Source of the DNA: Candidatus Moraniibacteriota bacterium
GTDB taxonomy: Bacteria > Patescibacteriota > Minisyncoccia > Moranbacterales > UBA1568
Length of the DNA stretch: 64,000 nucleotides
Direction: 5' to 3'
Assembly: GCA_963778555.1 (NCBI GenBank)
Contig: CAVZUR010000004.1
Span: 101,112 to 165,111 of the forward strand
Below, piece by piece: positions 13,028-15,966 of this stretch. Position 1 is the stretch's first letter, and every line of letters starts with the position of its first letter. A program made the translations under genes and the position numbers. Under the pieces are notes generated by a model that searched no databases, was not told the DNA's origin, and saw only the letters and a list, made by a program, of their open reading frames with translations.

Positions 13028-13315
13028 CTACTCGATGGAAATAACCTGGATGCCGAGCCGATCGACCTCCTCTTTGGAATTGAAAGCGTAGATGTCTTCA
13101 AGTTTGAAGCGACTGACTTCGGTCACGCGCTTCTCAAGCTTTCTTCCGGTGTAGGTCTTCGCTTCCTTGTCCCATTCCCGGAGCAAGAGCGTATCGCCTT
13201 CGGCGATGTCAAAATCATTCAGTCGGAGCTCATACTTCTTCTTGCCCAACGCCACCCGGTCAAAATATTCTTTCCACAGTTTTTTCTCAACAACAGCCAT
13301 AGCATATAAACTCAT
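13028..13315 (-). CDS. ASCH-like small protein (DUF3850 family)
   Basis: [49 protein letters not shown] resembles the DUF3850 consensus; the ATG overlaps the secA TGA (ATGA). Confidence 0.6.
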
Positions 13316-15966
13316 GACCCGTGGCACTTCTTGTACTTCTTGCCGCTGCCGCAAGGGCAAGGGTCATTGCGACCAACGGCAGTCGGCATTGTGGATCGGC
13401 GACTGGGGTTCTGAGGGTTTCACCTTTTGCTCCTTGCCTTCGGGACTGACTCCGGCGAACTGCTCTATCGTGTCCGAAGCGCCCTTGTACTCCACCGCGC
13501 GCGGTACCGACGACGTGATGCCCGGATGCAGCGGGGTGATCTTGAAGAGGGTGACGAGATACGTTTTCCGCACCGTATCCATGAGCCCCACAAAGAGGTC
13601 ATAGGCTTCGCGCTTGTACTCAATCAAGGGATCGCGCTGGCCATAGCCCGCGAAGTCCGATGCCCTGGCGCAGATAATCGATCTCGTCGAGATGATTCAT
13701 CCAGAGCGTATCGAGCGATTGGAGGAGGAGGAGCCGCTGTAAACGGTTCCAATCTTCCTTGCCAATGCCCGTTTCTTTGGCCGCATAGGTGCGCTTGGCC
13801 TCGCCGACGAGGTACTTCAGTGATCGCGGATTTCTTTTCCGGTTCGGTTCGCGAGCGATCATCACGGATGCTCTCGAGCTTGGTCCGCGCCGCCTGGTCA
13901 TCGAGATCCAGCAAACAGATTGTTCGCCTCACCCGACGATATCCGCGACATTCCATTCGTTTTCCTCTCCAGCCGTGTGAAAACCGACGACGCGCTCGAA
14001 TTCATCAGCCACCAATCCGATGGTCGTGTCGCGGTACTCGGTTGTTTTCAGCCATTCGACGCGCTTCTTGTAGACGACTTCGCGCTGTTTGTTCATCACA
14101 TCGTCATAGTCGAGCACATGCTTGCGGATATCGAAGTTGTAGCCCTCGATCTTTGATTGGGCGGATTCGATCGTCTTCGAGACCAAGCCGTTCTCGATCG
14201 CCTCGTCATCCGGCAGCCCCAAGCTCGTCATCATGCTCTTCATCCGGTCGCCCCCGAAACGCCGCATCAGTTCATCCTCGAGCGAGACAAAAAACTGCGA
14301 CACGCCCGGATCGCCTTGCCGTCCGGCTCGACCGCGGAGCTGATTATCGATGCGCCGCGCTTCATGCCGTTCGCTGCCGATGATCATGAGTCCGCCGAGC
14401 GCCTGCACGCCGTCACCGAGTTTGATGTCGGTCCCACGACCAGCCATGTTCGTTGCGATCGTGACTGCACCACGCTGTCCGGCGCCCGCTACGATGGCCG
14501 CTTCGCTCTCGTGATTCTTGGCGTTCAAGACCTGATGCGGCACGCCCTCACGCGTCAGGAGCGCCGCGAGGTATTCAGACTTTTCGATGGCGATAGTCCC
14601 GATGAGGACCGGCTGGCCCGTCGCATGGACCTCCTTGACCCGGTTGGCGATGGCCTGATACTTCGCTGCTTCGGTTTTGTAGATGACATCCGCCAGATCT
14701 TTGCGGACCATCGGCCGATGGGTCGGGATCTCGGTCACGTCGATCTTGTAGACTTTAGAGAATTCCTCGGCAGAGGTGGAGGCCGTGCCCGTCATGCCAG
14801 CGAGCTTGCCATAGAGTCGGAAATAGTTCTGAAACGTGATGGTCGCCAGGGTCCGGCTTTCGCGTTGCACCGCGACGCCTTCTTTGGCTTCGATTGCCTG
14901 ATGGAGTCCCTCGCTGTAGCGGCGGCCCGGCATGAGGCGGCCAGTAAAATCATCGACGATGATCACCTCGCCGTCTTTCACCACATAGTCGCGATCAAGC
15001 GCAAAGATGATATGCGCCTTGAGGGACTGCTCCAAATGGTGAACATACTGCACATTGCCGCTGGCATAGATGTTCTCCATCCCGAGGAGCTTCTCGACGT
15101 GGCCGATACCGGCGTCGGTCAGCGTCACCACCTTCATTTTCTCATCGATGATGTAGTCTTCCTCGGCCTGTGAGCCGCGGAACGATGCCGGCGAAACGCT
15201 CATAGAGCTTCGTCGATTCGGTATCCGGCGCGGAGATGATGAGGGGCGTCCGTGCCTCATCGATGAGGATGGAGTCCACCTCGTCGACGATGGCGAAATT
15301 CAGCTCCCGCTGCACCTTCTCCTCCAGGCTCGCGACCATGTTGTCCCGGAGATAATCAAAACCGAATTCATTGTTCGTCCCGTACGTGATGTCACAGGCA
15401 TAGGCCTCGCGGCGGGTGATTGGGAGCAGGTTTTCCATCTCGACCGAGACTGCATCCGTATCGACGGTCTTCGGTTCGAAACGGTACGACGCCCCCTGGC
15501 CGAGGATGCACGCGGTGGACAGTCCCAGAAAGCGATAGACCCGACCCATCCAATTTGCATCGCGCTTGGCGAGATAATCGTTCACCGTCACGACATGAAC
15601 CCCTTTCCCGGCTACCGCGTTCAGATAGATCGGCAAGGTCGAGGTGAGCGTCTTGCCCTCACCGGTCTTCATTTCCGCGATCGTTCCGCGATGCAGCACG
15701 ATGCCGCCGATGAGCTGCACATCATAATGCCGTTCGCCAATCGCTCGCTCGGCGGCTTCGCGCACCACAGCGTATGCCTCCGGCAAGATATCCTCGAGCG
15801 ACGCGCCAGTAGCGAGACGTTGTCGGAATTCGTCGGTCTTGGCCCGTAAACCCTCATCCGACAAAGCCGCCGTGGTCTTTGCATGGCGATTGATTGCCTC
15901 CACCAAAGGCTGAATTTTGGCGATTTCGCGCTCATTGGAGCCGAAGAGTTTTTGGAAGAAAGACAT
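13312..15966 (-). CDS. secA: preprotein translocase ATPase SecA, frame interrupted at least 3 times
   Basis: N-terminal [14 protein letters not shown]...KTGEGKT, middle DEAD/helical domains, and C-terminal [11 protein letters not shown]...[12 protein letters not shown]...; the zinc-finger tail [17 protein letters not shown] is found in a third frame ending at 13312; fragments are 15142-15966, 13929-15260, 13620-13901 and 13364-13627. Confidence 0.9.

Follow-up and report, generated by a model that had tools for sequence, protein, structure and literature searches.

How could a bacterium keep a secA gene that is thrown out of frame at six places along its length? The question is raised by a 64,000-nucleotide (nt) stretch of DNA, hereafter the window, from a metagenome-assembled genome (MAG) of Candidatus Moraniibacteriota (assembly GCA_963778555.1, contig CAVZUR010000004.1, positions 101,112 to 165,111), in which secA and several other conserved genes are interrupted by frameshifts. 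An earlier note on this sequence had proposed localised low-quality consensus as the explanation, and the analysis described here supports it, on indirect evidence, through the size and clustering of the insertions and deletions (indels), the open reading frames (ORFs) that reappear when these are reversed, the ratio of non-synonymous to synonymous substitution rates (dN/dS) and the sequence of a near-identical strain. We put the probability at roughly 0.93 that the frameshifts are clustered consensus errors of one or two bases and not mutations in the organism, such that the genes are to be read as intact; the finding is almost certainly an assembly artefact and no biological feature.

The secA gene occupies 13315..15966 on the minus strand and is spread over three frames, as had been claimed and as is evident from both the listed ORFs and the raw sequence. 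It had been described as four ORF fragments, a number that alignment replaces with seven colinear segments of 265, 412, 8, 31, 55, 88 and 22 codons, separated by six +1 insertions. The first extra base, called at ~15171, falls within 15168..15171 in the context ctcACAGGcc, where the exact base is ambiguous. The second (13934), a GG read as GGG, produces a TGA stop at 13929-13931, the third (13909) is a G read as GG in gctGgatc and the fourth (13815, in gaaGtac) is either the G or one A, these three adding up to +3 and so restoring the frame. The fifth (13649) is again a GG read as GGG, in cgcGggc, and the sixth (13384, in gccGact) lies shortly upstream of the region encoding the zinc finger. 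Removal of all six yields a single, complete ORF of 882 amino acids (aa) that includes the C-terminal zinc finger, followed by a stop codon at 13315-13317.

The reference for this corrected reading is P0121, an uninterrupted SecA of 882 aa that shares a 90%-identity cluster with the middle secA fragment (P0001, 424 aa). P0121 derives from other runs (SRR30502275 and others) as assembled in Logan, at loci L003-L005, syntenic with the window. In a frameshift-aware alignment, residues 1-881 of the 882 align to P0121 with 812/881 identical (92%), and beyond the six +1 insertions the alignment is free of deletions, in-frame stops and residue gaps, which bears out the earlier statement that every conserved block, up to and including the zinc finger, is present. 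By Pfam, P0001 bears PF07517, PF01043, PF21090 and PF07516, and in the orthologue P0121 the set of five is complete, with SecA_DEAD, SecA_PP_bind, P-loop_SecA, SecA_SW and the SEC-C zinc finger; this full domain set, together with the colinear full-length alignment, marks the corrected product as a predicted SecA preprotein translocase ATPase. A second relative, L002 (GCA_049290475.1), 94% identical at secA, confirms the first three insertion sites, and the corrected C-terminus is 93% identical to P0275 in one frame, in a match spanning 67% of the 249-aa query. The largest secA fragment finds its best matches among the SecA proteins of Candidatus Moranbacteria and Moraniibacteriota, members of the Patescibacteria or Candidate Phyla Radiation (CPR).

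If the frameshifts were instead the product of very recent real decay in this strain, with secA, murB, murC, rseP, queA and the genes of a glycan locus all true pseudogenes, selection should have relaxed beyond the first lesion, and it has not. Compared with L003, dN/dS in secA is 0.032 ahead of the first shift, 0.025 between the first and second and 0.030 in the final 204 codons, with an overall range of 0.025-0.037 in segments with unsaturated synonymous sites; despite six frameshifts the value stays at ~0.03 downstream of each, and no segment before, between or after the shifts is under relaxed constraint. SecA is, moreover, essential in bacteria, and bacterial gene decay is biased towards deletions, both of which count against decay here.

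A closer comparison is afforded by run ERR11593397, four Logan contigs of which overlap the window over 10.8 kb at 98.5-99.95% identity. The window is free of indel events relative to L001 (window 1-2198; one mismatch) and L006 (31652-33695; five mismatches), has one, intergenic at 58101, relative to L033 (56233-61168; seven mismatches), and has six, alongside 17 mismatches, relative to L007 (2169-3781), whose span thus carries both the most substitutions (about 1%) and the most indels. L007 encodes an intact 196-aa ORF for a hypothetical protein, and it is this same gene (2784..3376, minus strand) that insertions at 3338 and 3035 interrupt in the window; four further indels, at 3752, 3731-3730, 2783 and 2722, are non-coding and fall just beyond it. 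Across the four contigs, 21/26 coding substitutions are synonymous and 5/26 non-synonymous when read in the uninterrupted frame, for which reason we rejected the idea that the mismatches are themselves consensus errors. Within the 196-aa ORF, ten of the 12 single-base differences are synonymous and the other two fall in one codon (TCT read as ACC); nearly all substitutions are synonymous on both sides of its shifts, which again argues against decay. Being mostly synonymous, the substitutions are better understood as real strain polymorphism that arose under selection on an uninterrupted frame, and more of them pair A/T in Logan with G/C in the window than the reverse (17 versus 6). Public data therefore hold at least two strains that are 98.5-99.95% identical, the window representing a distinct haplotype; that these differences are real polymorphism is also a point that decay can claim in its favour.

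To place these examples in a wider context, indels were called with a purpose-written protein-to-DNA aligner that permits frameshifts, with intact orthologues from L003 and from four syntenic GTDB MAGs (L008-L011) as references. The census covers the 35.8 kb for which these provide references, and the other ~28 kb (mainly 16.9-29.5 and 47-53 kb), lacking a usable one, may contain further shifts. The aligner called no frameshift in 12 intact genes, some of them only 44-51% identical to their reference, so its false-positive rate is low and the calls are not aligner noise. The GC content of the window is 51-59%, and its clean genes are without in-frame TGA, which indicates that genetic code 11 applies. 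This frameshift-aware count against homologues, which the earlier note had suggested, returned 54 indel events: 33 of +1, 18 of -1 and three of +2, with none longer than 2 nt and a single in-frame stop among them; at several sites the identity of the inserted base is ambiguous. The events are strongly clustered (index of dispersion 5.8), with 23/38 one-kb bins empty and two adjacent bins holding 12 each, and five of them lie in non-coding DNA, namely the four around the 196-aa gene and the one at 58101. The indels are thus short and reversible to full-length ORFs, and their positions ignore gene borders, as an artefact requires.

The genes that are hit sparsely give the same picture, the earlier calls holding for each of them as to the presence of shifts, with the per-gene counts turning out to be underestimates across the window. 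In queA (3766..4825, minus strand) there are insertions of one base at 4396 and 4012 and a deletion of one at 4122; the NUDIX hydrolase gene (10824..11296, minus strand) has the two single-base insertions that had been predicted, in the TTT and TT contexts that had been noted, at 10981, where TT has become TTT, and at 10959, where T has become TT. A single +1 insertion interrupts each of murB (29884..30814, minus strand; at 30451) and murC (30834..32232, minus strand; at 31002), and in rseP, encoding a site-2 protease with M50 and PDZ domains (53005..54149, minus strand), one G is missing from a GGGG run at 53878, splitting the M50 Pfam profile into positions 2-67 and 66-221 in two frames. Correction restores proteins of orthologue length, or no more than three residues off, wherever an orthologue is available (NUDIX 156/156, MurB 309/309, MurC 465/464 and QueA 352/349 aa), and gives an RseP of 381 aa.

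The remaining damage is concentrated in an error-dense stretch at 42125..45313, affecting genes on both strands, where ~33 indels fall within 3.2 kb, or ~1 per 95 nt. Its edges are intragenic. It begins in the middle of acd (41039..43165, plus strand), previously described as an acyl-CoA synthetase gene with at least five shifts and here refined to an ADP-forming acetyl-CoA synthetase with seven, all between 42125 and 43068 (~42125, 42225, 42418, 42473, 42790, 42923 and 43068), along with a gain of 3 nt near 42307-42345; no shift falls in the first 1086 nt. The adjoining GT4 glycosyltransferase gene (43192..44403, minus strand), for which at least six shifts had been claimed, has at least 14 that are common to three references and ~17 with the best one, a mix of insertions and deletions; its orthologue in a relative matches Glycos_transf_1 and Glyco_transf_4 (Pfam). 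A Methyltransf_11-type methyltransferase gene (44380..45124, plus strand), likewise rightly called as frameshifted, follows with at least six shifts and one in-frame TGA at 44753. The stretch then ends 180 nt into a gene for a Wzy_C (O-antigen ligase-like) membrane protein (45131..46508, plus strand), where single-base deletions at 45173 and 45313, both within the first 180 nt, take out the N-terminus and the other 1.2 kb are clean. The region 38697-46508 is a conserved cell-envelope glycan locus (GT4, beta-helix protein, acd, GT4, methyltransferase and Wzy_C ligase-like), with a gene order common to the window and four related MAGs (L008-L011).

This stretch offers an argument for decay, since besides the in-frame TGA its corrected proteins match those of relatives 10-15 points less well than relatives match one another, when the flanking genes and the 5' half of acd show the window to be as similar to relatives as these are to one another. 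Cell-envelope glycan loci often differ between strains, and such variability may account for a poor consensus here. Against decay, the cluster opens in mid-acd with the 5' 1086 nt untouched, all indels are of 2 nt or less, the sparse sites are almost all insertions, and the whole-gene damage and varied indel sizes that decay would bring are not seen, the ~50 lesions including no more than one in-frame stop. True pseudogenes of the kind found in Mycobacterium leprae or in recent insect symbionts resemble the window in that many genes are frameshifted, but there whole genes decay, with deletions of varied size, nonsense mutations and a relaxed dN/dS, and secA and other essential genes are spared, a pattern not seen in the window. 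We therefore regard very recent decay as very improbable. An extremely improbable variant is a rapid mutational collapse in which the indels are real, arising for example from a frameshift-prone defect in replication or repair; secA and other essential genes would then really have lost their function, or would depend on some unknown form of recoding for rescue.

Recoding in its known forms, whether programmed ribosomal frameshifting, transcriptional slippage or another process, has in its favour only that otherwise conserved genes carry the shifts, and we consider it vanishingly improbable. The sites have no common motif, slippery sequence or long A/T run; they include both +1 and -1 shifts, up to ~17 in one gene; a stop codon follows within a few codons of most; and indels also occur outside genes, while relatives encode the same proteins in a single frame. 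The programmed +1 shift of prfB (release factor 2) is alike in that a +1 shift is required to read a conserved protein, but it occurs at one conserved site with a defined motif across species, as opposed to ~50 sites without a motif that are absent in relatives. The small size of the indels, the restoration of proteins upon their removal and the purifying selection that has been kept throughout together point to consensus error and not to decay or recoding.

What kind of consensus error this might be is informed by the sequence context of the events. A systematic artefact, in which basecalling goes wrong at homopolymers or at a methylated motif like GATC and a local lack of consistent reads plays no part, would be suggested by the rseP event in a GGGG run, by the recurrence of CTG[G]ATCT at 13909 and 31002 and of CGC[G]GGC at 13649 and 30451, and by GATC sites, which lie within 6 nt of 8/54 events against 7.8% of background positions (p = 0.056, uncorrected). 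The homopolymer link drawn by the earlier note nevertheless fails: the longest run averages 2.24 bases near events and 2.29 across the background (p = 0.58), and of 75 runs with at least six bases not one carries an indel. None of 13 motifs tested at two radii, including GATC, GANTC, CCWGG, CCGG and GCGC, is significant after multiple-test correction, and the recurring CTGGATCT and CGCGGGC contexts, considered as a possible motif link, look like coincidence. Systematic errors would in addition be spread across the window, in place of the clustering observed. This explanation is accordingly very unlikely, though the lack of homopolymer enrichment argues only against systematic homopolymer error and not against random residual read error. 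Without a homopolymer signature, residual raw-read noise at places of little consistent support is suggested over a systematic basecalling error.

Consensus error of this residual kind has close counterparts in the false frameshifts of long-read assemblies and MAGs, in which indels of one or two bases split conserved genes into adjacent ORFs and their removal restores the proteins. Low-coverage genomes are known to be the worst affected, and Watson and Warr are said to have described in 2019 how indel errors truncate predicted proteins. The window differs in that its indels are not at homopolymers and that its sparse sites are mostly insertions, resembling raw-read noise. Short-read polishing has been required for indel correction (PMC9262707), and the long-read Nanopore MAGs of the Danish Microflora Danica project, assembled by Flye in nano-hq mode with a single round of Medaka and no polishing by short reads, had lower coding density at lower coverage (PMC12313526). 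For the window, a few stretches may have had too little consistent read support for the assembler or polisher, be it from low local depth, from reads of co-existing strains or from both. Raw-read-like indels of one or two bases would then have been left in the deposited 402,909-bp MAG contig, at the poorly resolved stretches of 42.1-45.3, 13.4-13.9 and 2.7-4.4 kb and at isolated sites elsewhere, and gene callers would have split the affected genes. Near-identical strains could possibly sit in one sample, making strain collapse during consensus building a plausible cause of the patchy quality. Both the long-read origin and the low local depth are what we infer; the names of relatives (MFD..._ilm_asm, MFD04780.bin) give no more than a hint that the window, too, might come from the Microflora Danica project.

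Several observations weigh against consensus error. Without homopolymer enrichment, the classic long-read signature is missing. Insertions make up 12/14 of the sparse sites, a bias that is not assignable to a platform, and the dense stretch, with its in-frame TGA and extra divergence, is also what real decay would be expected to produce. Contigs of the near-identical strain overlap neither secA nor the dense stretch: the absence of the indels from the sister strain is seen for the 196-aa gene and its flanks, with acd, GT4, murB, murC, NUDIX, queA and rseP outside the overlap. A search with the corrected SecA C-terminus gave no matches near 100% identity, and hence no direct confirmation from a sister strain; exact look-ups of the corrected NUDIX, MurB, MurC, RseP and QueA in the protein collection found none, and look-ups of neighbouring genes (HD, a 246-aa protein and DUF3850) for further sister-strain contigs likewise had none on record. 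Consensus error is still the reading we prefer, because secA is hit six times, the clusters are blind to gene borders and extend into intergenic DNA, and the genes are intact both in relatives and in the sister strain.

The contrast with the surroundings of these clusters is part of the same pattern, more than 20 neighbouring genes being without shifts. By the aligner, those for DUF4012, the HD protein, YkuD and the 765-aa PMT_2 protein are shift-free, as are trmD, ftsW, murG, hpf, rplI and three genes at 37.5-40.9 kb, and by Pfam serS, lysS, greA, mrdA, mreC, frr and the gene for the 505-aa protein are full-length in a single frame; the earlier description of pyrG, the 765-aa and 505-aa membrane proteins, lysS, serS and mrdA as clean thus stands. 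In relatives L003-L005 and L008-L011, all affected genes are intact and in the same order.

Two of the clean genes have start sites that merit comment. The start ATG of the orthologue of the YkuD-type L,D-transpeptidase aligns to ACG at 12429-12431 (minus strand), the first usable start in the window being a TTG that lies 21 nt downstream; either a T has been replaced by C, through error or polymorphism, or the start has genuinely shifted. Within the 5' end of the 826-aa 'mrdA' ORF, a second ORF, in a different frame and scoring high for codon usage, lies at 62289-62825 (minus strand), and its position between mreC and the penicillin-binding domains suggests that it is probably mreD, with the true start of mrdA near 62290.

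A 13-kb block at 16800-29900 is missing from L003, where hpf and small ORFs are all that separates murB from secA, ~1.5 kb away. The block codes for a signal peptidase of the S24/S26 type (22931-23590), two Laminin_G_3 proteins and four paralogues with a Peptidase_M73 (camelysin/TasA-like) N-terminus, recalling the sipW-tasA fibre operon of Bacillus, which also pairs a signal peptidase with TasA. Three of the four paralogues each look broken into two overlapping ORFs and may carry further indel errors; paralogues tried as references for these camelysin-like genes (23.6-29.5 kb) were too noisy at 45% identity, and their shifts are uncounted.

The broken pieces have already entered public collections as separate proteins derived from NCBI/ENA, among them SecA fragments of 274, 424 and 93 aa, a NUDIX fragment of 171 aa and an acetyl-CoA synthetase fragment of 372 aa. 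Nor do they seem to be alone there: P0136 (473 aa), a Logan acetyl-CoA synthetase homologue from another assembly, has a last ~70 residues that look out of frame and is probably frameshifted too, and fragments of this type are common in the protein collection. Such fragments will inflate pseudogene and gene counts, depress completeness estimates and seed spurious protein clusters. Pseudogene calls on this contig are therefore to be withheld until it has been re-polished, the corrected frames being usable in the meantime. The importance of the finding lies in data hygiene and in the warning that it gives on deposited annotation, and not in biology: left as they stand, the fragments are open to being misread as genome decay, or as loss of the Sec, peptidoglycan and glycan pathways, in a CPR bacterium.

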